Below the pieces are notes generated by a model that saw only the letters and a program-made list of their open reading frames with translations, was not told where the DNA came from and did no database searches. DNA of 64,000 nt from a virus: positions 31,141 through 95,140 of the IMG/VR virus record IMGVR_UViG_3300049847_000416; one strand, written 5' to 3'. Within the stretch, counting starts at the first letter, position 1. The number at the start of each line of letters is the position of its first letter. Position numbers and translations under genes: made by a program. Of this stretch, positions 6,625-61,610 are shown piece by piece.

Positions 6625-9069
6625 TTACGGATTCACACGGGAAATTCCCGGTGTGGACATCAAAAATTCGGTGCACATGGTGTTGAACGCGCCAGCGGTA
6701 GCGTCCCCGATATCATCGTGCAGATCGTTGTCGCCGGTCAGCCCGCAGATTTCCTGGAGCCAGTCTGTGGCCCAGACGCTATTGACCAACCAAACGTTTT
6801 GGTTCTGGGCTTGAGCCGCGAAGGGACTCCACCGGGCGCGTTTCGGTCCGCCTGGTGCTACGCCCATGATGTTATATCCCGGCAAGGACCGGACGAAGTG
6901 GGACACCAAAGACTTACCGGACGCGCCAGGTTCCCGCTCAATGCGCTGAAACACGTTAACACCATCGGACTTCATCGTGCCAATCACCCGCTGTTCAACA
7001 ATGGCGGGGTTCGACCGGAACCGCTGCATGTCTTCCACGACGATCCTGCCGATGGAATCACGCGCCATGAGAATGCCCACGGTGTAATCAGGATCCGTGT
7101 TGGGCTTGGGATCGGTCGCCGCCAAATCCCAAAACCGCAAGCGCAGGCACTTTCCGGCAACGGGCACCGGCTGCATCAGGAACCACTCGCGCTGGAACAC
7201 CGCATCAGTACGGGTGGCCATCCAATCGCCATACCGGCGTTGCCGGTAAGTGAGAGGATCCAGGTTCTTCAGCGACTTCTCATATTGCACTAAGTCAATT
7301 GCGGGGTTGTCCTCGATATAGAACGGAATGTACGCAATGTCAGGGTCTTTTCCCTGGTTCAAAACGTATTTGTCCCGCAGGAAGATGTGCGAGATGCCAC
7401 CCGGATTACTGACGAGTCTATAGCGCAACGGGATCGGATCCGTGATGACTTTGCGCAATCGCAGGAAGATGAACTCTAGCTGAGTCTGAGAAAACTGCCC
7501 GGCTTCGTCAATGCCGATGAAGTGGAATTCGGGACCGTCGTACTGGAACTTGTCTTGTTCCGTATTCATGTGACCGAACTTTAACACGGCCCCAGCCGGA
7601 AAGCGCACCTCATGGGTATCGCTGTTGAAGTGGAATGGGACGCCTGCCGCCTGCATCCTCCGCAAGGTGCGGTCCATAATCGAATTGGGAGACGCCAACT
7701 GACCAAGAGTTCGGCGCAGGATGAGCGCCCGGTAATTGGGCCGCGTCACATACTGCAACGCCGCCCGGATCAGGACTTCTGAATTGTGAGTCAGGATGTA
7801 GTGCTTCGTGCAGAACAAGTGGTCTTCGGCTTCCACCGCAATGCACGTACACTCTTCGGGCGCAACTGGCTCCACCGTGCGCACACTGCGCTTGGGCGCT
7901 ACCATGCCCTTCTTTTTGGTGTAGTCAGGTTGATATAGTGCAACCTTGCGCGGAAGCCGGAACGGCTGGACCCACGATGGGAGCCTCAAGCTGATCGGGT
8001 ACTCTATGCCCTTACCCGCCGCTGTGCGGTCGGCTGTGCTGATGACGGCTCTACCGCCCAGTCCTTCCACAAGCTCCCGGAAATTTTCTGCCAACTTATG
8101 GGAGGTAGTGTCAAACCGGATTTGGTGCGTGTTCTTCTTTCGGAACGCCATCCCGTCCGAGTCCATTAACCCCTGGAGAACGGCGATTCGGTAGGCGGGG
8201 GACGCACGGAGTGCGACTTCTGGGATAAACCGCTCGCCGGAGTATAGGCCGAGCAGACCGAGCTTATCCAGCGCATCGCGCTTACTGGCTCCGTAAGTTA
8301 CGTGGAAAGAGTGCGTCCCTTGAGCCAAATACGTGCGGTCAGGAGATCCCAAGTGCACAAGGATGTCAGGTGCGTCCCGGTCGTCCATCGCGATGCTAAC
8401 TTGCCGCCCAGCTAAAGAAGTAAGCTCACCATTACCGATGGCGTATCCTAGGAAGTACCCGTCTAGCTCAGGATCTGGTCCACAATCAAACTCCACTGGA
8501 CCGCTTAGCATCGGGATCGTGTCAGCCTTGCGGGCGCTGAGGCCCCGCAGTTCATCCGTGCGTACCACTCGTGTCTGAAGAGGCTTCCGCCCCGTTACTT
8601 CCCGAGACACCGTCCACAAATGATCGTCGGCGGCAGTCACCGAACTGCCGTCAGAGAATGTAACACGGCTGCAAGGCCGAATACCCTGCGGATACACTCC
8701 GATGACCTTGGTGGGTTTGCCGTTGGAGCCGATGACGTAGTCACCTTCCCGGATGTTTCCGAAGCGTCGGTAACCCTGTGGAGTCGGTATAAGTTGTTGA
8801 TTACAAAGGGCTTTGCCGTTACCACTTGCACCTCCGGCCATTGCTTGGTAGTGTGGCAACATGCAGAATGCCTTCTGCTTCGGGAACATAGGAAACACTT
8901 TCGTGTAGATGTTCTCCGTCTGCAAGTACTCTGCTTGGAACTTGCGCACGTCCACCATCCCCGCTCTCACTTTTTCCAGATTGGCTTGAAAAACAGAGAG
9001 GGGGAGCCCAGCCTTCCGGGCCATGTCTGCGTAGTCTATCGTGGGCAACTTAGTACTATCGTACCACAC
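6625..9069 (-). CDS. terL: terminase large subunit, intein-containing (start may be ATG 9024)
   Basis: Walker A GGASGNGK|S split by intein, Walker B 'IGIDEA', 'SNPGG', nuclease 'WDLA...DYT', 'HDD'. Confidence 0.95.
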   Translation of the reverse strand: MWYDSTKLPTIDYADMARKAGLPLSVFQANLEKVRAGMVDVRKFQAEYLQTENIYTKVFPMFPKQKAFCMLPHYQAMAGGASGNGKALCNQQLIPTPQGYRRFGNIREGDYVIGSNGKPTKVIGVYPQGIRPCSRVTFSDGSSVTAADDHLWTVSREVTGRKPLQTRVVRTDELRGLSARKADTIPMLSGPVEFDCGPDPELDGYFLGYAIGNGELTSLAGRQVSIAMDDRDAPDILVHLGSPDRTYLAQGTHSFHVTYGASKRDALDKLGLLGLYSGERFIPEVALRASPAYRIAVLQGLMDSDGMAFRKKNTHQIRFDTTSHKLAENFRELVEGLGGRAVISTADRTAAGKGIEYPISLRLPSWVQPFRLPRKVALYQPDYTKKKGMVAPKRSVRTVEPVAPEECTCIAVEAEDHLFCTKHYILTHNSEVLIRAALQYVTRPNYRALILRRTLGQLASPNSIMDRTLRRMQAAGVPFHFNSDTHEVRFPAGAVLKFGHMNTEQDKFQYDGPEFHFIGIDEAGQFSQTQLEFIFLRLRKVITDPIPLRYRLVSNPGGISHIFLRDKYVLNQGKDPDIAYIPFYIEDNPAIDLVQYEKSLKNLDPLTYRQRRYGDWMATRTDAVFQREWFLMQPVPVAGKCLRLRFWDLAATDPKPNTDPDYTVGILMARDSIGRIVVEDMQRFRSNPAIVEQRVIGTMKSDGVNVFQRIEREPGASGKSLVSHFVRSLPGYNIMGVAPGGPKRARWSPFAAQAQNQNVWLVNSVWATDWLQEICGLTGDNDLHDDIGDATAGAFNTMCTEFLMSTPGISRVNP
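7783..8811 (-). mobile_element. intein (343 aa) with LAGLIDADG endonuclease in TerL Walker A
   Basis: starts ALCNQQLIPTPQG, block B 'ADDHLW', 'FLGYAIGNG' and 'LQGLMDSDG', ends 'ILTHN|S'. Confidence 0.92.
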
Positions 9070-9260: not shown

Positions 9261-11102
9261 TTACTTTCGGAAGCCGACCAGGGCTTGTCCCGCTCCTCGG
9301 GCTGGATGGTGTCTCCATTGTGTCCAGCCTACGAAATTTCCCTTGCCGGAACCAGGGGTGCAGGCATGTTCGAACGGCGACCCATGCTCCGGCTCCGCTG
9401 TGCTCAGATCGTTGTACAACCGGAGGTCTTCCTTATAGTCAATCTTCCCGGACTGGGTCAAGTAGGACGTGCGGGCGCTCCGAGCGCACGAGATCTGGAT
9501 CCGCATCAAGATGTCTGCCAACTCCGTTGGTGGTTTATCAGCCAACGTCGCCGGAATGAACGGAAGGTGCCACTCTCCCTTTTTGACCAGTTTGGGAATA
9601 CTGGCCGCGAGGGCTTTGCGCATCTCGCGGGATGGCGCAGCAATCTCCGGTTGCGCCAACTCGGAATCTCGCTGGGCAAAGTAGTTGTCCCACTCAGTAC
9701 TGGTGACAAGAACCGTATGCCACAAGAACGGTTCCAGCACCCGGTTGGCAATCTGCTTGTGCAGACCCAGCACGTCCAGAGTGAAAGCAATTCCACAGGC
9801 GAGTAGCGCGCCGACGCGCCAGGCCACGCGGGCTACAAACTGTTTCCACCCAGTGATGGGTTGCCCAGCCTGCATGCCCTTTTTGTTCCGACCCCAATCC
9901 AAGGGGAAGGCGCAGTCGAACAGAACACTCTTAATGCGTTTGCGGATAGGGATAGCGCGTGAAGATGCGGAGTTCCGGGAATTGTGAACCACTACTCCGT
10001 TTGCGAAGAAATTGGGATATTCGCTGTCTATCTCAAGATCATAAGTAGGTTCGTCGCCTCGATAGGTCACTGACTCAACCTGGGCGGGTGCCGCGTACAG
10101 GTGATTACCACTGTCCTGCCAGCCCTGTACTTTGTGTTCTGTTTGATGACAAGAGGAGCAAAGCAACGTCACATTCGTCGGATCATACACACGCTCAGGA
10201 GCTTGGTAGACTGGGATGACGTGGTGAACTTCGACCCCGAGGTTATCACACCTTCGACAAGAGGGATTCTCTTTCTGCAACCGAGTCCGCTGCTCACGCT
10301 GCCACTGGGCTCGCCACCGCCCATCAAGGTACTTTAACCGGTTCGCGTCTTTCCGCTCAGACGCAGGGCGACCAAACTTCTGCGTGAGGATAAAATCTGC
10401 CGTGGTCAAGTCGCCAATGGTCTTCCAACCTGCCGTAGTTAAAACGCGGTGGTCCAAGCTCCCAGCTACGCAAAAGGCACCGGCTTTGACTTCGTACACC
10501 GGTTTCGTTCCTGAAACCTGCACGTTCTTCACACGTGCCCACTGAACAACGCCAGTCTGTTCATTAACCTGGCGAATTCGCATGGACTGCAAACGTGCCC
10601 GCATGTCAAAACGCGTGTGTGGCGGAACAGCACTCCGCCATGCCTTCAAGTCCTTCCCCAAAACCTGCCAATCCTCACTGCGTTGTGTTTTGGTCCCTAG
10701 GCATGCTCCTGACCGGCATGCCACCCGAATAGGTCCCGGCGTAGCCATACCCATTTTTTCCGCAGCATCTTTCGCGGTGTACACAGCCGAATCTTCACAC
10801 CAACTTAGATCATACGCGAGTTTGGGATTGGCTCCATGTCGGTTCGCACCGTGTAGCCACCGATCCACAAAAGTGTCCAAGCGCACTCGGTGCGAACGTC
10901 GAGAGCCGCCCTTCTGGGGCGTGGGTAAATCAAACTCTAGCTCAGCATCTCCCGCTAAGCAGAAGGTTCTGTGAGTGTTAAATTCCGGCAATACAAATCG
11001 GTGCATGACTACCAGTAGAGTAGTCACGCGCACGCCGGCGGTAGAAATCGAGTCTGCAATCACCTCGGCAGACGGCTTTGTTCGGTTGTAGAGATTGATC
11101 AT
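9261..11102 (-). CDS. thyX: FAD-dependent thymidylate synthase ThyX, intein-containing
   Basis: spliced motif 'EFNTHRTF|SRNSASSRAIP', 'LHKQIANRVLEPF', 'AQPEI', 'SPFEH'; ATGA overlap at 11102. Confidence 0.92.
   Translation of the reverse strand: MINLYNRTKPSAEVIADSISTAGVRVTTLLVVMHRFVLPEFNTHRTFCLAGDAELEFDLPTPQKGGSRRSHRVRLDTFVDRWLHGANRHGANPKLAYDLSWCEDSAVYTAKDAAEKMGMATPGPIRVACRSGACLGTKTQRSEDWQVLGKDLKAWRSAVPPHTRFDMRARLQSMRIRQVNEQTGVVQWARVKNVQVSGTKPVYEVKAGAFCVAGSLDHRVLTTAGWKTIGDLTTADFILTQKFGRPASERKDANRLKYLDGRWRAQWQREQRTRLQKENPSCRRCDNLGVEVHHVIPVYQAPERVYDPTNVTLLCSSCHQTEHKVQGWQDSGNHLYAAPAQVESVTYRGDEPTYDLEIDSEYPNFFANGVVVHNSRNSASSRAIPIRKRIKSVLFDCAFPLDWGRNKKGMQAGQPITGWKQFVARVAWRVGALLACGIAFTLDVLGLHKQIANRVLEPFLWHTVLVTSTEWDNYFAQRDSELAQPEIAAPSREMRKALAASIPKLVKKGEWHLPFIPATLADKPPTELADILMRIQISCARSARTSYLTQSGKIDYKEDLRLYNDLSTAEPEHGSPFEHACTPGSGKGNFVGWTQWRHHPARGAGQALVGFRK
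9981..10961 (-). mobile_element. intein (327 aa) with HNH endonuclease in ThyX active-site motif
   Basis: starts CLAGDAE, block B 'SLDHRVLT..GW', HNH 'CRRC..VHHVIP..NVTLLCSSCH', ends 'VVVHN|S'. Confidence 0.92.
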
Positions 11103-11293
11103 CGCAGCATCAGTTGAACGACTTTGGCCGTGAGGCCGATGTACAAGGGGAGGGCAACAACCACAGCCACGCCCAGGGCGACCAGTCGCCACTGACCCAC
11201 GTTCTCAGCGTGCTCCTCGGCATCAGCTTGAAGTTTCAGAACATACTCCGCCAACTGCTGCGGCGTGAGTTTGGATAAATCAGGTTGGTTCAT
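11099..11293 (-). CDS. small protein with C-terminal transmembrane helix
   Basis: AGGAG RBS, hydrophobic 'LVALGVAVVVALPLYIGL'. Confidence 0.6.
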   Translation of the reverse strand: MNQPDLSKLTPQQLAEYVLKLQADAEEHAENVGQWRLVALGVAVVVALPLYIGLTAKVVQLMLR

Positions 11294-24600: not shown

Positions 24601-27600
24601 TCGTCATGCCCACCGTGCTCACGGTTCCTTGGAAATTCTGAGTGAACGACGTACCAGGGGCAACCATCTCCGTTTGAGAAACAACCGCAGGCGTCCAGGT
24701 AGTTCCATTGTCCGCTGAGACTTCCAGACGAACCGTACCCGTCCAGGTTCCTTTGACCAGGACATGCACGGATGGGACGCTCACGAGGCTGATTGCCGCA
24801 GCAGAGAGCGCTGTAGGCGCTCCCGTGATGAACAACTGACCGTTGGCACCAACAGACTGCACAGAAACGATGTCCTGTGTGCTGATCGAGATGCTATTCA
24901 CCTGATCCTGTGGGCCGACAGTGTCCACCAACAGGCGATTGGTGAGAGGGGACTTCGGGAGATTGTTCACCGACACATCATTGACGCCGACTGTCTTGAT
25001 GATGGAAACGCCCACCGTACCTGAAGTCCAACTCAACAGGCGAATGCGGTAGTGGGTCGCACCCAAGGTGGATACCACGCCCACGAACGAATTTTCGTTG
25101 GCAACAGGGGACACAAAAGACGTAGCATTGTAAGCCACTCCATTCTGCTGAACAGAGGCGGGTGTGTAGGTCAAGCCACCGTCGAAGCTGATCTCTGAAC
25201 TGATAGCCGACACACCAACCTGAACCGCAGTCACCCGGATAGCGGAAACAGACGACAGAGGGAACACCGCTGCGGAACCGGCGTCAGGGACACCAGCAAA
25301 CGTCTGTTGACCATTCGCCAGAGTGGTGGTAACCACTGTAGCGTCATTCACCGTCAAGGTGATCGGACCAGCCGTTGTGTCAGCAGCAGCCGCTGTATTG
25401 ACCTGGAGCACACCTCCCGAAATGGGGAGCTTTTCCTGCAAAGGGCTGTAGGTCGCCAGGAGTACAACGTTAGCCGTACCAGTCATGACAGCGGTGGAGC
25501 GCACGCGAATGTGTGTAGCACCATTCACAGAGACAGCGCCCACGAAGTTGGCAATAAAGGAAGTCGCCGGAGCCGTAGTATTGGTTTGGGAAACGGCTGT
25601 AGGCACCCACGTGGTTCCACCATCAATGGAGGTTTCCACCTGCAAAGTACCGGTCCAGATTCCGGTCACTTGGATACGCGCCGTCTGGTTGCTGGTAAGC
25701 GTGGCCTGCACGAAGGACGCAACGGTAGGAACACCCGTAATCAAAGACTGCCCGTTCGCTCCAGCAGTTGATACAGACACAATGTCCTGGGCTGTGATCG
25801 CCGCAGAAGTGGAGGTGTCGGGCGGGTTCTGAGCATCCACTTGAACGCGGCTGGTGACCGTGTTCTGGGGCAGATTCGAGATAGACACAGAGGACGGCCC
25901 TGCCGTCTTGACCACGGTAACACTGAGTGTACCAGAGGTGAACGTGGTGACACGAACTCGCAGATGAGTTGCACCCTGCGTGTTGACCGTACCCACCAAG
26001 TTCATCTGGGTGCCGACTGCACCGGTCCAGGCCGAGAAAGGCTTGACAACCTCAGGCTGCAATATGTCTGCCCGGTAGAATCTAACACCACCGTCGAAGC
26101 TGACTTCAGCCACCGCAGTACCGATCATGTTTCCAGTCGTTTGCAACTTCACAAGGGGAACGGACGCCAGAGTGAACAAAGCTTCAGAGCCGGCAGTAGC
26201 CAAGCTTCCGTTGGTGAAAGTTTTTCCGTTGGCGAGAGTGCCTGAGGTGGTTCCGCTGTCATCGACGGTAAGAACAACCGGACCTGCGGTGGTGTCCGCA
26301 GCCGATGCCGTGTTCACCTGAACCTTGCCGCCCACGATGGGCATTTTGTCTTTGGCTGTGGTATAGCGGGCGTACAGCGCAACCTGCGCAGTTCCGGTAT
26401 GAACAGCCGTCTCGCGGATTCGGACGCCCACGGCACCCTGGGTGTCCACGGTTCCAGCAAAATTCTGCGTAAACAGTGTGGAAGGCGCAACGGTGTCAGT
26501 CTGAGACACGGCTACAGGGATCCAGATGGTTCCGTCATAGGTGATTTCCGCTTGCAGGCTGCCCGTCCAGGCGTTTGATGCCTGAACCACCACTGAAGGA
26601 ATGTTGTTCAGTGTGGCGGTTGCGAAAGATGCAGCGGTAGGAACACCAGTCACAAAAGACTGGCCGTTCGCCCCGGCTGCGGTAACCGAAACAACGTCCC
26701 GTGCGGTGATGTTGCTGGTGCTGAGCAGCGCATCGGGAACAGGAGCCGTCTCCACCTGAACGCGGTTGAGAGCGCTCTTGGGTAAGTTGTTGATGGAAAC
26801 GACGCCGGCAGTCGGGCTCTCCACAATGGAGACAGCCGCATTTGCGGCGGTGAACGAGGTGCAACGAATCCGGTAGTGAGTGGCTCCCGCCGTGTTCACC
26901 TTACCCGTGATCTGGTCTTCAGTACCTGTGGTGGTAAAAGCCGAGCTACCGATGGAGGTGCCTTCTTGGAGCACGGGGGCCGGGAACCAAGTCCCGCCTC
27001 CGTCAAAGCTGATTTCAGACAGCAACGTACCAGCGAAACCACCGGTGACCATGTTCACCTGTACAGAGGCGGCAGACGCCAGTACGAAGGCCGCAGCGGA
27101 TCCCGCTGTGGGAACACCAATCGTGTAAGTCTGGCCATTCACGCCGGTGGTAGTAACCGCCACGGCGTCTTGCGCACTGATGTTGATCGTGGCAGACGGG
27201 ATGTTTGCGGGAGCGCTGGCCCCGCTCACCTGGAGCTTGCCGCCCAAGATGGGCAACACCTGTGGTCCCGGCTGGTAAGACGGGACGAGGGACACAATCG
27301 CTGTGCCAGTCATAGCGGCGACCGCACGGATACGCAGGTTCGTCGCACCAACCGTATTCACTTGGCCGATGAAGTTCTGGGTGAAGGAAGAGGACGTGGC
27401 CGTAGAATCGGCCTGCACAACGACTGCCCGCGTCCAGGTGACGCCGCTGTCAATCGAAGTTTCTACCTGGAGGGTACCGCTCCACGTACCCTTCGCCTGA
27501 ACCATGGTCGTTTGGTTGCCGATCAAGGCAACCTGTGCAAAAGAGTTCACGGTCGGCGGTCCATTGGTGAAGAACGGTTGCCCATTGGCTCCCGCTGAAG

Positions 27601-29155: not shown

Positions 29156-29235
29156 ATGATGTCTACCTGATAGTATCGGCAGCCTCACATCTGTGTGGGC
29201 TGAACAAGCGGTTCAGAAATTTTCTGAGCCCACCA

Positions 29236-29265
29236 AAAGAATTGGACCAAGGATGTCCTTGGTCC
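29236..29265 (-). terminator. intrinsic terminator
   Basis: GGACCAAGGA/TCCTTGGTCC stem followed by AATTCTTTT. Confidence 0.65.
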
Positions 29266-29476
29266 GTGGAGATAAACTACTTAGGTCAGTTGAAACCGCC
29301 GACGGGGTCATCCCGCATTACCCCAGGCTTGTGGGGGGTTTCTTTGAACTTACAGCGGTTCGAATGGGGCAGGAAGATGTGGTCGGTTTTCTGGGATAGA
29401 GGTTGATACCTCGCATGTTCCAGTAGAATCCGGTTAGTAAGACCCTGCCCACTCGACACTTTCAGTATAGCACGTT

Positions 29477-30161: not shown

Positions 30162-30974
30162 CTACAGCGGAGAAATTTTCCGCAACTGTTCCAACACCGC
30201 CCACAGCCCGTGCCGCTCACGAAAGGCCACTGGCATTGGCACGCGGGATCCGAAAGCGGTAGTCCGCGCGTAAGTCAAGTACCGCATGCACCAGCTTCGC
30301 GTCCTTACAGGCATTGAAATTTTATGCTGGCTGATCAAGGAATCCAATTCCAGCCAGTCTAGCGGCATGTCGTTGTTCCATTTCTCCCGAGCTTCAGCGT
30401 ACGCTTGATTGCGTTGTTTCCGGTGCAGCACCCGCATCTTCCGCTCAAACCCAATTGACTTCACCCGTTTATTGGTCGGGAGAGCAGCATTCCGGTCCCG
30501 GATCCATTCTTCCGGGTTCTCCCACAGATGCAGCAACCAGGTCTTGTAGAGAGTCAGTTCGTCCTTGGTGACTTTTTCCGGCATTGGAAACCAACCAATC
30601 ACACCGTCGGCGATCTCGATGAACCGGCTGTCCTTGAGCATCTCCCCTGTTCTCCTGTGATTTGGTGGCTTCCAGTAATCTGGCATAGGCCAGGAATCCG
30701 TGGTTTTCTCCAGCTTCCAGAGCTTCATCCCATGCAGCTTACTTCTGACCAATGAGAGATCAGTCTTGCTGACTGTGCGAACATCCACGTACAGAGCTTC
30801 AGCCTGCTTCGATATAACTGGAAGAACGACTTTCAGAAGATCAGATTGCTTGATTTCCAGGAGTTTGTCAACGATCTGAGAAACCAGGCTTTCATCGAAT
30901 GAAAGAACGGGTGAAATTTCAGATGGCTGTGACTTTGGTGTTTCATGATGAGTCTGACGAGTAGATGGTTTCAT
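30162..30974 (-). CDS. hypothetical protein (possibly replication-related)
   Basis: 270-aa ORF next to repeat-rich divergence region; no motif recognised. Confidence 0.6.
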   Translation of the reverse strand: MKPSTRQTHHETPKSQPSEISPVLSFDESLVSQIVDKLLEIKQSDLLKVVLPVISKQAEALYVDVRTVSKTDLSLVRSKLHGMKLWKLEKTTDSWPMPDYWKPPNHRRTGEMLKDSRFIEIADGVIGWFPMPEKVTKDELTLYKTWLLHLWENPEEWIRDRNAALPTNKRVKSIGFERKMRVLHRKQRNQAYAEAREKWNNDMPLDWLELDSLISQHKISMPVRTRSWCMRYLTYARTTAFGSRVPMPVAFRERHGLWAVLEQLRKISPL

Positions 30975-31221
30975 GGTTAGATCAATGAATGGGTGAAATT
31001 TCAGATGTCAGTGATAGCTGTGATTTAAGTTGGGACTGTGTCCTTTGATCATGGAATGCTGATCTCTTCGAGATCAGATTCTGCTGATCGGAGATCTCTT
31101 CGAGATCTCTTTGAAGAGATGGAGCTATCCTTAAACCCATCTATCAGTCTCACGTCTAGCCATCCAGGTGTTCAGCCATCCAGCAGCCAGACGGGAAGGA
31201 GTTTGACCGCTCATGAACGGG

Positions 31222-31691
31222 AAAAGGGCATGGGAATAGCCTAGGAGTAGCATCAGAATGGTTAGATTCTTAACACTAAACCCAGACTATTCCCATGCCC
31301 CTCTCACTTCTACAAAGTACCTTGGACTTGACCAGCCCAAGTTACGATGAATGAGGGTGAAACGTTCTCGACCCGGCGTCACGTGGAGTCATTGGAAGAG
31401 CCGCTGAACACCATCGCTGGCCCAGGCTGGTTGGTCTCCTGCTTGCGCAAGAATCGAACCAGTTGGTCCTGTTTGAGTCTTTAGACCTATCACCCCCATC
31501 GGTTGCCCGAATCGTGTGTAGGAAGATGCCCCGTCGTTCCAATTATCTTGAGTGGGTGCTGCTCAGCATCATTGCCCATGGTATGGACCATCCCGTCTCC
31601 AGGACAACCCACCGGGGAATCTCACCCCGACAGCGCTTGCGTACATCTCAGCCCACCGCCATCGTTTTATATGCCGACCCAGTGAACCTAC
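31222..31691 (-). ncRNA. candidate large structured ncRNA (~470 nt)
   Basis: own sigma70 promoter, three GNRA-capped stems, long-range helix, terminal hairpin plus U-tract, no convincing ORF. Confidence 0.6.
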
Positions 31692-31697
31692 ATACAC

Positions 31698-31726
31698 AGT
31701 ATCTCACATTTCAGGATTTCTGTCAA
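31698..31726 (-). promoter_or_regulatory. leftward sigma70 promoter
   Basis: TTGACA-17-GATACT. Confidence 0.8.
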
Positions 31727-31764
31727 GCCCTCGTGCAAAGAAACCTTAGGGAGCTATTTTCTGC

Positions 31765-31793
31765 TTGCGTCTGTGGCCTACATCTGGCATGAT
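31765..31793 (+). promoter_or_regulatory. rightward sigma70 promoter (leaderless mRNA)
   Basis: TTGCGT-17-CATGAT, ATG 6 nt downstream. Confidence 0.65.
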
Positions 31794-31799
31794 TGACTT

Positions 31800-32096
31800 A
31801 TGAACTTGGACAACTTCCAGAAAGTGCTAGACCAGATCGAAGCACATCCTGAGACTTGGGAGCAAGCAGTTTGGCATACGTCCTGCGGGACGGCTCACTG
31901 TTTTGCCGGCTGGGCTCAGCTTCTCGCTGGGGACGAAATGTCAGAAGATGCCGTTGCAGATGACGCGATCCGGTTTCTGGACTGCACCGAGGATGAAGCA
32001 GACTACCTGTTCGAGCCCGAGCGCACCCTGGCGGACTTCCGGCACGTTCTCCAAACGGGAACGGTCCCAGGCTACGGATGGGGCGATGAGTCTTAA
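31800..32096 (+). CDS. Cys-motif phage protein (CGTxxCxAG family, distant member)
   Basis: 'SCGTAHCFAGWA'. Confidence 0.75.
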   Translation: MNLDNFQKVLDQIEAHPETWEQAVWHTSCGTAHCFAGWAQLLAGDEMSEDAVADDAIRFLDCTEDEADYLFEPERTLADFRHVLQTGTVPGYGWGDES

Positions 32097-33117
32097 GCGC
32101 AAGGCGGCAAACACCACCACCACCGCCGCCGCCGCGTGGCCCGAGCCGGCAGCCATTGCTACGTGGATGCGGGCTCGCGTGGCTGGGCAAGACGAAGCTA
32201 TCGACATTCTCGCCAATTACGTACACATGTACATGGCGGGATTGAACCCAGACCACCGCCCAGTGGGAGTCATACTCCTGCTTGGAGTATCAGGTTCCGG
32301 CAAAACTCACCTCGTGAAAACCCTGGCGCACGCCATTCACCGGGATCCTCGAAAAATGCTGTACATTAACTGCGGGGAATACACAGCAGGACACGAAGTG
32401 GCGCGCTTGATAGGAGCGCCTCCGGGTTACTTGGGCCACAGAGAGACCCAGCCACTGCTCACCCAATCCGTCCTGAACGGACTCACTACGGAGCACAGTT
32501 CGCTCCAAATCGTGCTGTTAGACGAAGTGGAGAAAGCGCACCCGAAGTTTCATCAAGCTTGGCTGAGTCCGTTTGATGAAGCACGGTTACAACTTGGTGA
32601 CGGTGCTATCACGAACTTTCAACACACCTTGTTTGTGCTCACGTCAAATCTCGGGTCTAGAGCCTTGCAACAGCGGTTCACGGCATACTCCCCCTTTGAC
32701 TCAGTAGAACGGGTGGTAACCCCGGCCAAGTTTGGGGCCACCGTGGTGGGAAAGGAATTTCCACCGGAGTGGATAAACAGGCTGGACGAAACCATCACGT
32801 GCAACGTGTTGGGCCGACCGCAGTATGAGCAGATCCTGACTCTAGAACTCCGGGCTGTTGAAGCGCAACTCAAACGCCGGAGTGCAAATTTTGTGCTTAC
32901 CGTGACCCCGGCTGCCCGCGAACAGCTACTGGAAGAGGGCATCCACCCGGCTTTTGGGGCACGTCCTCTGAAGCGAGTGCTCAAGCGCCGCATTCTTCAG
33001 GCCCTGGCGCAGAAATACGTCCAGGGAACCTTGACTCCTGGCTGGCCAATAACTTTGGACTACGACCAAGAATTCAGTGTACGATACAGCAGTGCGGTAA
33101 AAAGGACAACAGCATGA
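32086..33117 (+). CDS. ClpB/ClpA-like AAA+ ATPase, single (D2) domain
   Basis: 'VAGQDEA', 'GVSGSGKT', 'LIGAPPGYLGH', 'LLDEVEKAH', 'PPEWINRLD', 'GARPLKR'. Confidence 0.92.
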   Translation: MSLKRKAANTTTTAAAAWPEPAAIATWMRARVAGQDEAIDILANYVHMYMAGLNPDHRPVGVILLLGVSGSGKTHLVKTLAHAIHRDPRKMLYINCGEYTAGHEVARLIGAPPGYLGHRETQPLLTQSVLNGLTTEHSSLQIVLLDEVEKAHPKFHQAWLSPFDEARLQLGDGAITNFQHTLFVLTSNLGSRALQQRFTAYSPFDSVERVVTPAKFGATVVGKEFPPEWINRLDETITCNVLGRPQYEQILTLELRAVEAQLKRRSANFVLTVTPAAREQLLEEGIHPAFGARPLKRVLKRRILQALAQKYVQGTLTPGWPITLDYDQEFSVRYSSAVKRTTA

Positions 33118-38579: not shown

Positions 38580-38627
38580 TACGTTCGGTCTATTGCGTGA
38601 GTGCCTAGATTCTGGGATCATAAACAC

Positions 38628-40112
38628 ATGGACCTGCAATTCTACCCGACACCACCCGCTCTCGCTAGACGGGTGGTGGATAAGTTCACCCGGAAGCCCG
38701 CATACGTCCTTGACCCGGAAGCAGGCACAGGAGCGCTTCTAGAAGCTGTGTTTGAGCGATGGAAGTACACCGACAGCCGCTACATAGACGACAATACGCA
38801 GTGGAAGTCAGACATTCACTTCCGTGCTATCGAGATTGATCCAGAGCGCTGCGCCGTCTTGGGAACGAAAAACTTCCAGGTGATTGGCCTTGACTGGGAA
38901 ACCTACTCGGATCCCACTCCATTCGACGCCATCGTCATGAATCCTCCGTTTTCAAAGGGAGCCCAGCACCTGCTGAAGGCTATCGCGAAGGGGGACAATA
39001 CCGAAATCGCTTGTATGCTAAACCACGAAACCCTGGACAACTTGTGCAATGTCACGCGGGTTTCTCTCCATACCAAGATCACCGCCCTAGGTGGGACAGT
39101 CGAGAATCTTGGCGTGCAAGAGTTTACAGACGACAGGGGTAACAAGGTAGCGGTGAACGTCGATCTGGTGTACGTGTACGTACCGGCGCGCACCGTTGGT
39201 ACCCAGGATCTCCAGGACATCGACACCACGGAACGACCGATTGCAGACTTGCAGGTGGAGAACCTACCGGCGTGTTTGGACGCCCTCGCAAACCTGGAGC
39301 ACTACTTCAATTTGACGGTCCAACACCGGTTTCTTGCGTTCGACCACAACGCGGAGTCGAACCGGTTTCGCGCTTGTCTGAAGCTCAAGAGTCAGGACGC
39401 CAGCAACAGATCGCTGATACCGGAGGACACCAGCTATAAAATGCAGTGGCTGGAACAGTTCCGCAAAGACGCGTGGACCGCTGTAATCAACCGGACCGAG
39501 TTCCGCACCTGGCTGGACAAGAAACAGCGGGCGGAGTTCGAGGAAGAAATCACTCGGGGAGCATTTCACGCGTTCACTGCTACGAACATCCGAGCCACCC
39601 TGGAAACCATTCTGCTCAAGAGGCAGGAGTACTTTGAGAAGTCCTGCGCGAATTGTTTCGATTCGCTCACAAAGTTCTATGCAGGAAATTCGGAGTACCA
39701 TGAAGGTTGGAAGACCAACAAGGCCCACAAGGTGGGCTGGAAGATAATTTTTCCCTATGGGGTGTCGTACGACGCCAAGTTCGATTCGTTCAACCTGTAC
39801 TCCAAGTACGATAGAGAAATTGACATCTACAACGATCTCGACCGGGTGGTGTGCATCCTCACTCGGGAGCCATTCGCAGACTGCAACACTATCGAAAAGG
39901 CTGTGCGGTCGGCGTTGTTGGAGTATGACGCGCGGCGGTGGAAGAGGTCCCCCGGAAAGCCCATCGACGCGGTAAAGGGGATCATCTCGGATCACTTCGA
40001 GATTGATCTGTTCAAGAAAGGAACTGCTCACGTGAAATTTCGTGATCCCAAAGTCTGCGAGGACTTCAATGTTATGGTGGCCAAGGGCAAGAAGTGGCTA
40101 GGTGCCGCATGA
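38628..40112 (+). CDS. N6-adenine methyltransferase-like domain fused to DUF4942
   Basis: 'QFYPTP', 'VLDPEAGTG', 'IVMNPPF', C-terminal 'FKKGTAHVKF'. Confidence 0.82.
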   Translation: MDLQFYPTPPALARRVVDKFTRKPAYVLDPEAGTGALLEAVFERWKYTDSRYIDDNTQWKSDIHFRAIEIDPERCAVLGTKNFQVIGLDWETYSDPTPFDAIVMNPPFSKGAQHLLKAIAKGDNTEIACMLNHETLDNLCNVTRVSLHTKITALGGTVENLGVQEFTDDRGNKVAVNVDLVYVYVPARTVGTQDLQDIDTTERPIADLQVENLPACLDALANLEHYFNLTVQHRFLAFDHNAESNRFRACLKLKSQDASNRSLIPEDTSYKMQWLEQFRKDAWTAVINRTEFRTWLDKKQRAEFEEEITRGAFHAFTATNIRATLETILLKRQEYFEKSCANCFDSLTKFYAGNSEYHEGWKTNKAHKVGWKIIFPYGVSYDAKFDSFNLYSKYDREIDIYNDLDRVVCILTREPFADCNTIEKAVRSALLEYDARRWKRSPGKPIDAVKGIISDHFEIDLFKKGTAHVKFRDPKVCEDFNVMVAKGKKWLGAA

Positions 40113-61348: not shown

Positions 61349-61362
61349 GTAGCTCCCCTTTC

Positions 61363-61515
61363 TCAATCTTTGATCCACCGATGCGTGGTTATCTTGCGCT
61401 CTGTGTCGAGAGCGCTAGTGATCCGCGCTTTGCTGGCGTCCATACTCTTGGCTAATTGGCGTCCGCCAACAATCGCCATAATGGTCATGATTCCAATCAA
61501 AAGTGCTCTCGACAT
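61363..61515 (-). CDS. 50-aa protein with N-terminal hydrophobic helix
   Basis: follows cassette G. Confidence 0.55.
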   Translation of the reverse strand: MSRALLIGIMTIMAIVGGRQLAKSMDASKARITSALDTERKITTHRWIKD

Positions 61516-61610
61516 TTGTTTGCTCCTGATCTAAAGATACCGGATTGATCGATTTCGATCAATCCGGTGAATACCCTAGGGATACCTAGTCCCTAGGGTG
61601 CAAGAGAGAT

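Follow-up and report, generated by a model that had tools for sequence, protein, structure and literature searches.

A candidate untranslated, structured RNA at the head of the leftward gene arm of an uncultured freshwater phage

The gap between two gene arms

The window, meaning the whole stretch of DNA analysed here (64,000 nt), covers bases 31141-95140 of a 95,140-bp IMG/VR virus record (IMGVR_UViG_3300049847_000416), whose estimated completeness is 73% and whose source is a freshwater-sediment metagenome. The record encodes a major head protein, a portal and a large terminase subunit (TerL), indicating a tailed phage. The best matches among cultured phages show at most 30% identity for the capsid and 25-38% identity, over part of the length, for TerL. 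In a gene map based on codon scores, minus-strand genes extend for ~60 kb leftward from position 30974 of the window, and plus-strand genes run rightward from 31800. The two arms are separated by an 825-nt gap that is large for this phage, and the candidate RNA lies inside it. The neighbouring genes translate normally under table 11. Downstream of the candidate comes a message of two genes (270 aa and 247 aa), which ends in a canonical minus-strand terminator at 29265-29244; the leftward arm as a whole has several canonical terminators, and internal promoters of its own are probable. Note that the terminator at 29265-29244 is located in a 288-nt gap (29189-29476) just before a 2515-aa gene.

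On the minus strand of the gap, direct reading of the sequence and a promoter scan gave a -35 hexamer, TTGACA (31721-31726), and an extended -10 element, TG-a-GATACT (31698-31706), in which GATACT occupies 31703-31698 and TG 31706-31705. A preliminary description of this DNA had called the site a strong promoter (TTGACA-17-GATACT); the elements are present exactly so, with 10/12 matches, and the upstream TG is an additional feature. The site is one of three with 10/12 matches in the 12-52 kb region. Given that promoter-like sites overall are no commoner than in shuffled sequence, the position and orientation of this promoter weigh more than its score. Transcription likely starts at 31690-31693 on the minus strand, 5-8 nt past the -10 element, as judged from the sequence. 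The scan showed no antisense promoter at the locus, and no other consensus promoter between the long hairpin that ends the candidate (see below) and the 270-aa gene, so that the RNA may never exist apart from the mRNA of that gene. A weak leaderless-type promoter, CTGACA-19-ATTGAT, is nevertheless found 6 nt upstream of the ATG of the 270-aa gene; together with two operator-like palindromes past the hairpin, it suggests that this gene may have its own control.

The stretch following the promoter is non-coding, as the preliminary description had proposed. All ORFs of at least 25 aa in 30975-31800 have negative codon-usage scores, like random ORFs, whereas the long genes average +0.19 per codon, and no Pfam or PHROG match was obtained for any of the ORFs in this interval. 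A conserved coding signature in the body of the unit, named earlier as evidence that would speak against an RNA, was not found: five changes observed in a natural variant (described below) are transitions spread over all three codon phases and thus do not form such a signature. Minus-strand ORFs of 66, 42 and 40 aa do exist, and one might suppose that they conceal a small protein gene or are read in an alternative genetic code. However, with their uniformly negative scores, their lack of Pfam and PHROG matches, the phase-independent variation and the normal reading of the adjacent genes under table 11, we regard this explanation as very improbable.

For membership in an Rfam 15 family, we then required the covariance-model score to reach the gathering threshold of that family. 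No match at the gathering score was obtained over the whole window, in agreement with the novelty proposed earlier; the unmatched families include GOLLD, ROOL, OLE, HEARO, group I/II introns, RNase P, tmRNA and 6S. At E ≤ 10, the only Rfam models found in 30900-32000 were those of plant and animal miRNA precursors, which scored far below threshold and were located on the long hairpin. In addition, ARAGORN predicted no tRNA or tmRNA genes in the window.

Folding on the minus strand and a natural variant

The predicted folding energy of the whole unit (31222-31700) differs strongly between the strands: -200.3 kcal/mol (z -5.27) on the minus strand and -144.5 kcal/mol (z -0.83) on the plus strand. 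The z-score of the whole unit comes mostly from the terminal hairpin. When the hairpin was excluded, the body (31306-31700, 395 nt) gave z -1.73 on the minus strand, where 4 of 100 shuffles folded equally well, and +1.26 on the plus strand. For a genome-wide comparison, the MFE of every 240-nt window on both strands of the 64,000-nt stretch was regressed on its base composition; outliers at the locus were obtained only where the long hairpin was included, and windows within the body were average. The candidate can thus be called highly structured, as in the preliminary description, when the terminal hairpin is counted, but not on the strength of its body.

The first helix predicted for the unit uses 31698-31690, which is at or before the likely transcription start. 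When the fold was begun at 31692, the 5′ half rearranged and the 3′ core (31499-31351) was unchanged. The fold of the 5′ half (31528-31692, minus strand) depends on the start point, and z was -1.5 for 31636-31528. The 3′ core domain (31351-31499, minus strand) is closed by a 10-bp helix that pairs 31499-31490 with 31360-31351, and the same fold was obtained in every run. Note that the domain-level z-scores (-3.1 to -3.6) carry a bias, since the fold itself served to set the domain boundaries. A further hairpin, CUUGGGCU / AGUCCAAG, is predicted at 31317-31345 on the minus strand. Two pairings over longer distances that had been suggested before turned out to be at the chance level. One is a 7-bp pseudoknot between ATTGGAA (31543-31537) and TTCCAAT (31397-31391); a perfect 7-bp helix was available in 60/60 dinucleotide shuffles. 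The other is an 11-bp helix between 31431-31421 and 31341-31331; an 11-bp helix with G-U pairs was available in 87% of 60 dinucleotide shuffles.

The three GNRA-capped stems reported in the preliminary description were all found at their positions on the minus strand. The GAGA-capped stem (31583-31612) can reach 13 uninterrupted pairs (31612-31600 with 31595-31583), of which six are G-U; the small GCAA-capped stem (31499-31510) has 3-4 pairs; and the GCAA-capped hairpin (31423-31471) has a z-score of -3.6, with 0 of 200 shuffles folding equally well. Over 31222-31700, the minus strand carries four GNRA-capped stems of 4 or more pairs, of which two have 6 or more, and the plus strand carries none. 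The expectation per 479 nt per strand in the 95-kb contig is 0.36 for stems of at least 4 pairs and 0.08 for those of at least 6 pairs, indicating ~10-fold enrichment in the unit. The count here is the maximum of the 95-kb contig, and no other place in it has two long ones. The strand asymmetry of G-U pairs pointed out earlier was also confirmed, as 27 of the 166 MFE pairs are G-U on the minus strand and become A-C mismatches on the opposite strand. The GCAA-capped hairpin further contains, at 31460-31451 (minus strand), a near-perfect tRNA T-arm/T-loop sequence, GGUUCGAUUC. A tRNA identity for this site was rejected, since the likeness is to the T-loop only and ARAGORN finds no tRNA.

Natural variation at the locus was available from run X2, another freshwater metagenome, in which a strain nearly identical to the reference is represented by contigs of low depth. 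Coverage of the stretch by runs X2 and X3 is limited to short parts, at depth 2-3. None of the sequencing runs listed for the stretch was an RNA run, which is uninformative about expression. An X2 contig of 151 nt (depth 2) aligned to 31323-31473 shows five differences, all transitions, at 31386, 31391, 31397, 31405 and 31411. Four of them make up two compensatory double changes in the hairpin at 31375-31422 (minus strand): the pair 31411:31386 is changed from G:C to A:U, the pair 31405:31391 is changed from A:U to G:C, and the remaining difference, at 31397, is in the loop. This hairpin had been predicted beforehand from the reference alone. The variant hairpin keeps its fold (-12.7 kcal/mol, compared with -13.2 kcal/mol in the reference), and the single changes cost 1.5-3 kcal/mol each. 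The chance of obtaining two compensatory pairs, calculated for this one variant at depth 2, was P = 2e-4 with uniformly placed changes, 1e-3 with clustered changes, and 7e-3 with changes kept within the same 26 nt. A sixth difference was found at 31186, downstream of the long hairpin, and is predicted to convert a G:C pair into G:U on the minus strand. The variant alters both ends (31397 and 31391) of the pseudoknot arm TTCCAAT, and the change at 31391 is compensated within the local hairpin; the variant thus supports the local hairpin, not the pseudoknot. Altogether, the GNRA enrichment, the G-U asymmetry and the two compensatory double changes support selection of an RNA fold on the minus strand. 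The comparative part of this evidence is real but thin, as it consists of one strain, one helix and a depth-2 contig.

We also considered that the locus has no selected function and is a spacer at the divergence of the arms, with a promoter-like site, hairpins and one large inverted repeat that arose by chance. The body z-score of merely -1.7, the chance-level pseudoknot and long-range helix, and the genome-wide frequency of promoter-like sites would all fit such a spacer, as would the lack of homologues of the RNA in the collections searched. However, a spacer accounts poorly for a pair of compensatory double changes that fall in an already predicted hairpin, for GNRA-capped stems that peak here genome-wide and on one strand only, for the strong strand difference in folding energy, and for a gap of this size in this phage. 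We therefore consider a functionless spacer improbable.

The long hairpin and the message beyond it

The 3′ boundary of the unit is marked by a long hairpin (31222-31304, minus strand) of 83 nt with 35 pairs, seven of which are G-U, followed by UUUUCCCG. Pairing in the stem consists of 24 continuous pairs and then blocks of 8 and 4, and the z-score is -9.6 on the minus strand, compared with -6.0 on the plus strand. In the preliminary description, this element was given as a 75-nt hairpin plus UUUU. The hairpin is real and slightly longer (31304-31222), but the supposed U tract is four U and then CCCG. Here, an intrinsic terminator was defined as a G+C-rich stem with a short loop and a U-rich tract directly 3′ of it (at least 5 U in 8). 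Because only four U precede CCCG in the tail UUUUCCCG, the hairpin was not reported by the terminator scan, and the reading of it as a transcription terminator is not supported. The canonical terminators of the leftward arm (16475, 14814 and 29265) look different from the long hairpin, with G+C-rich stems of 9-12 bp and tails rich in T. A hairpin for RNase III was defined by two features, a nearly uninterrupted double-stranded stretch of ~20 bp or more in the transcript and cleavage by the host enzyme; the 24 continuous pairs reach this stem length, and cleavage is putative. Judged by its stem, the hairpin looks more like a processing or 3′-protecting element than a terminator.

Between the long hairpin and the 270-aa gene is a non-coding stretch of 247 nt (30975-31221, minus strand; z -3.3). 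It contains two copies of an exact 15-nt palindrome, GATCTCGAAGAGATC, at 31061-31075 and 31093-31107, 32 nt apart. These could be an operator pair or twin RNA hairpins with GAA loops. A third, partial copy of GATCTCGAAGAGATC is found at 31104-31114, and each palindrome copy has two GATC sites. In addition, the start of the 270-aa gene lies within a diverged direct duplication of 58 nt (30899-30956 and 30981-31038; 82-nt spacing), whose copies are 72% identical and share an exact 17-nt core, CATCTGAAATTTCACCC. As a result of this duplication, an upstream ORF of 52 aa ends in a copy of the N-terminal codons of the 270-aa gene, and the ORF is probably not a gene.

Given that no further consensus promoter was found before the 270-aa gene and that a terminator follows the 247-aa gene, the first leftward unit probably consists of the promoter, a long leader, two genes and the terminator. 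This layout raises the alternative that the whole of 31692-30975 (~717 nt) is simply the 5′ UTR of the 270-aa/247-aa early-left operon and has no separate RNA role. In such a leader, the structures, including the big hairpin, would tune expression by attenuation, antitermination, mRNA stability or feedback from an encoded protein. The compact unit closed at 29265-29244, the missing consensus promoter after the hairpin, the hairpin's lack of a proper U tract, the equally non-coding and structured stretch past it (z -3.3), and the position of the locus at the head of a ~60-kb leftward gene run all speak for a purely cis-acting leader. On the other hand, the GNRA enrichment and the multi-helix core exceed what a simple leader needs, the 270-aa gene may be separately controlled by CTGACA-19-ATTGAT and the two operator-like palindromes, and a leader of 700 nt is unusual for a compact phage genome. 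Both the cis-acting role and this mode of action are, in our judgement, serious possibilities that fall well short of being probable.

The base composition beyond the hairpin suggests yet another role, namely a replication origin with a primer transcript, in which the RNA would enter an AT-rich, GATC-dense repeat stretch (30810-31110) and prime or activate replication. The GC minimum of the neighbourhood, 0.42, is at 30850-31149, and the GATC density at 30810-31110 (9 in 300 nt) is the highest of the 95-kb contig, tied with a site ~46 kb leftward. The two exact 15-nt palindromes, the exact 17-nt direct repeat inside the 58-nt duplication, and the divergence of the two arms at this point would also suit an origin. 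However, the cumulative GC skew has its minimum elsewhere, at 24758; the repeats have just two copies; neither an antisense promoter at the locus nor a recognisable replication initiator adjoining the region was found; and the big hairpin stands between the RNA and the AT-rich stretch. The case for a primer role, drawn from these sequence features, is circumstantial, and we think such a role quite unlikely.

Interpretation and known systems

Our best reading overall, which we hold at slightly below even confidence, is that a selected untranslated RNA heads the leftward early unit and is set off from it by the long hairpin. According to this model, the sigma-70-type promoter at 31726-31698 would drive leftward transcription, and the first ~470 nt would be an untranslated RNA. 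The RNA would have a stable 3′ core (31499-31351) surrounded by several hairpins, of which four are GNRA-capped, and the 83-nt hairpin (31304-31222) would separate it from the downstream message. Such a separation could occur by leaky termination at the short U run or, more likely, by cleavage of the double-stranded stem; either route would leave a discrete RNA with a protected 3′ end. As a speculation, the RNA may serve early in infection as a protein-binding scaffold or decoy. We rate a free-standing RNA gene as no more likely than a released leader fragment or a purely cis-acting leader. Of the novel phage ncRNA put forward in the preliminary description, the evidence supports an RNA that is non-coding, selected on the minus strand and without an Rfam family; it does not support the pseudoknot, the long-range helix, the terminator reading or as much structure as was claimed. 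A bolder version would make the RNA the first known example of a new class of phage RNAs that are large, rich in GNRA loops and folded in tertiary structure, and that function as RNA (scaffold, decoy for host or defence proteins, or ribozyme). We find this version doubtful, and equally so its accompanying proposal of early synthesis from a host-type promoter with stabilisation by the unusually long 3′ hairpin.

Phage leaders cut by RNase III are well known. The T7 A1 leader, ~390 nt in length, is cut at R0.3 by RNase III, and the lambda pL N-leader carries an RNase III hairpin. GNRA-rich cores are not a known feature of the T7 A1-R0.3 or lambda pL leaders. The candidate resembles them in that a strong early promoter of the host type is followed by a few hundred nt without translation and, just ahead of the first early gene, by a long double-stranded hairpin. 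It differs in having no sequence similarity to them, and cleavage here by a host RNase III is putative. Lambda also makes the PR′-tR′ 6S transcript, and put of HK022 is a cis-acting antitermination RNA. As in those cases, a short non-coding transcript would head a very long unidirectional gene array. However, the hairpin of the candidate is no canonical terminator, no Q- or N-like gene was recognised, and the leftward arm has several canonical terminators and probably its own internal promoters. With regard to replication, ColE1 RNA II is a primer, and the T4 and T7 origins consist of a promoter and an unwinding element. The resemblance to RNA II, a structured RNA of ~500 nt made from a sigma-70 promoter and directed at an AT-rich region, is circumstantial; no antisense RNA I promoter was found at the candidate, and an origin here is putative.

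GOLLD and ROOL are large, ornate phage-associated RNAs (PMC12286853). Like them, the candidate is carried by a phage, does not code for protein, extends over several hundred nucleotides and has many hairpins, some of which are GNRA-capped. However, it matches neither Rfam model even at E ≤ 10 and is a member of neither family. In addition, the candidate, known from sequence alone, has no tRNA genes nearby, no known relatives and no sign of oligomers, and its thermodynamic signal is far weaker than the word ornate implies. By comparison with these systems, GOLLD and ROOL are closest in kind, and the RNase III-cut early leaders of T7 and lambda are closest in layout.

Structured RNAs of several hundred nucleotides encoded by phages are rare, and the few known examples (GOLLD and ROOL) form striking RNA-only assemblies whose function is still open. 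Another such RNA, bounded by a defined promoter and a defined 3′ end, would lend itself well to structure probing and cryo-EM and to studying the role of large RNAs in infection. Even as a leader and nothing more, the candidate would show how the first leftward genes are gated in an uncultured freshwater phage lineage almost without public relatives. Its value is limited for now by the fact that it is a single metagenome sequence from a phage whose host is not identified, with one natural variant as evidence of selection.

Relatives of the phage were sought at several loci. A blastn search with 31150-31800 against 50,697 phage records gave no match, a transition-tolerant pattern built on the GCAA hairpin gave 0 matches in viral_contigs, and the 95-kb contig contains the RNA in a single copy. 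The 270-aa protein retrieved only itself among 5.8 billion proteins and no relative in viral_contigs; a full HMMER search of 1.84 billion representatives gave one relative (P0122; 35% identity), on a 21,259-bp JGI contig. For this protein, which the preliminary description had listed as a possible partner of the RNA, neither Pfam nor PHROG gave a match, no usable lead came from the Atlas, and the AlphaFold2 model is poor (pLDDT 44). For TerL, the relatives amount to one 4.4-kb IMG/VR fragment (62% identity), with none in metagenome_contigs or genome_contigs. The ATPase and the 98-aa neighbour on the rightward side had no match in viral_contigs. The phage lineage is thus nearly absent from the collections searched, and the RNA is so far a singleton.

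On the rightward side, the gene adjoining the divergent promoter (32086-33117, plus strand) encodes a ClpA/ClpB-D2-like AAA+ ATPase. Its best relatives (~45% identity) belong to Bryobacteraceae and other Acidobacteriota, which hints weakly at the phage host. The start of the 98-aa gene (31809-31913 of the window; phrog_889 family) has an ~85%-identical copy on a separate 14.9-kb contig of the source sample run (X1). The depth of this contig is similar to that of the phage, and its flanks differ from the locus. The same sediment seems to contain a related phage or a mobile gene.

Elsewhere in the phage, TerL (814 aa; 6625-9069, minus strand) has an insert of ~340 residues directly after the P-loop (GNGKA|LC ... 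THN|S), with an LQGLMDSDG block inside, which looks like an intein with a homing endonuclease; the insert is also present in the 62%-identical relative (L002). A 643-aa protein (9261-11192, minus strand) matches thymidylate synthase over residues 403-627 and an HNH endonuclease over residues 285-360, and a DNA methyltransferase-like protein is encoded at 38601-40112. Finally, the other strong folding outlier of the window is located between minus-strand genes at 61361-61600. It has a z-score of ~-5 on both strands, a symmetry unlike that of the candidate RNA, and contains the perfect DNA palindromes CCGGATTGATCGA-TTT-CGATCAATCCGG and CCCTAGGGA...TCCCTAGGG.
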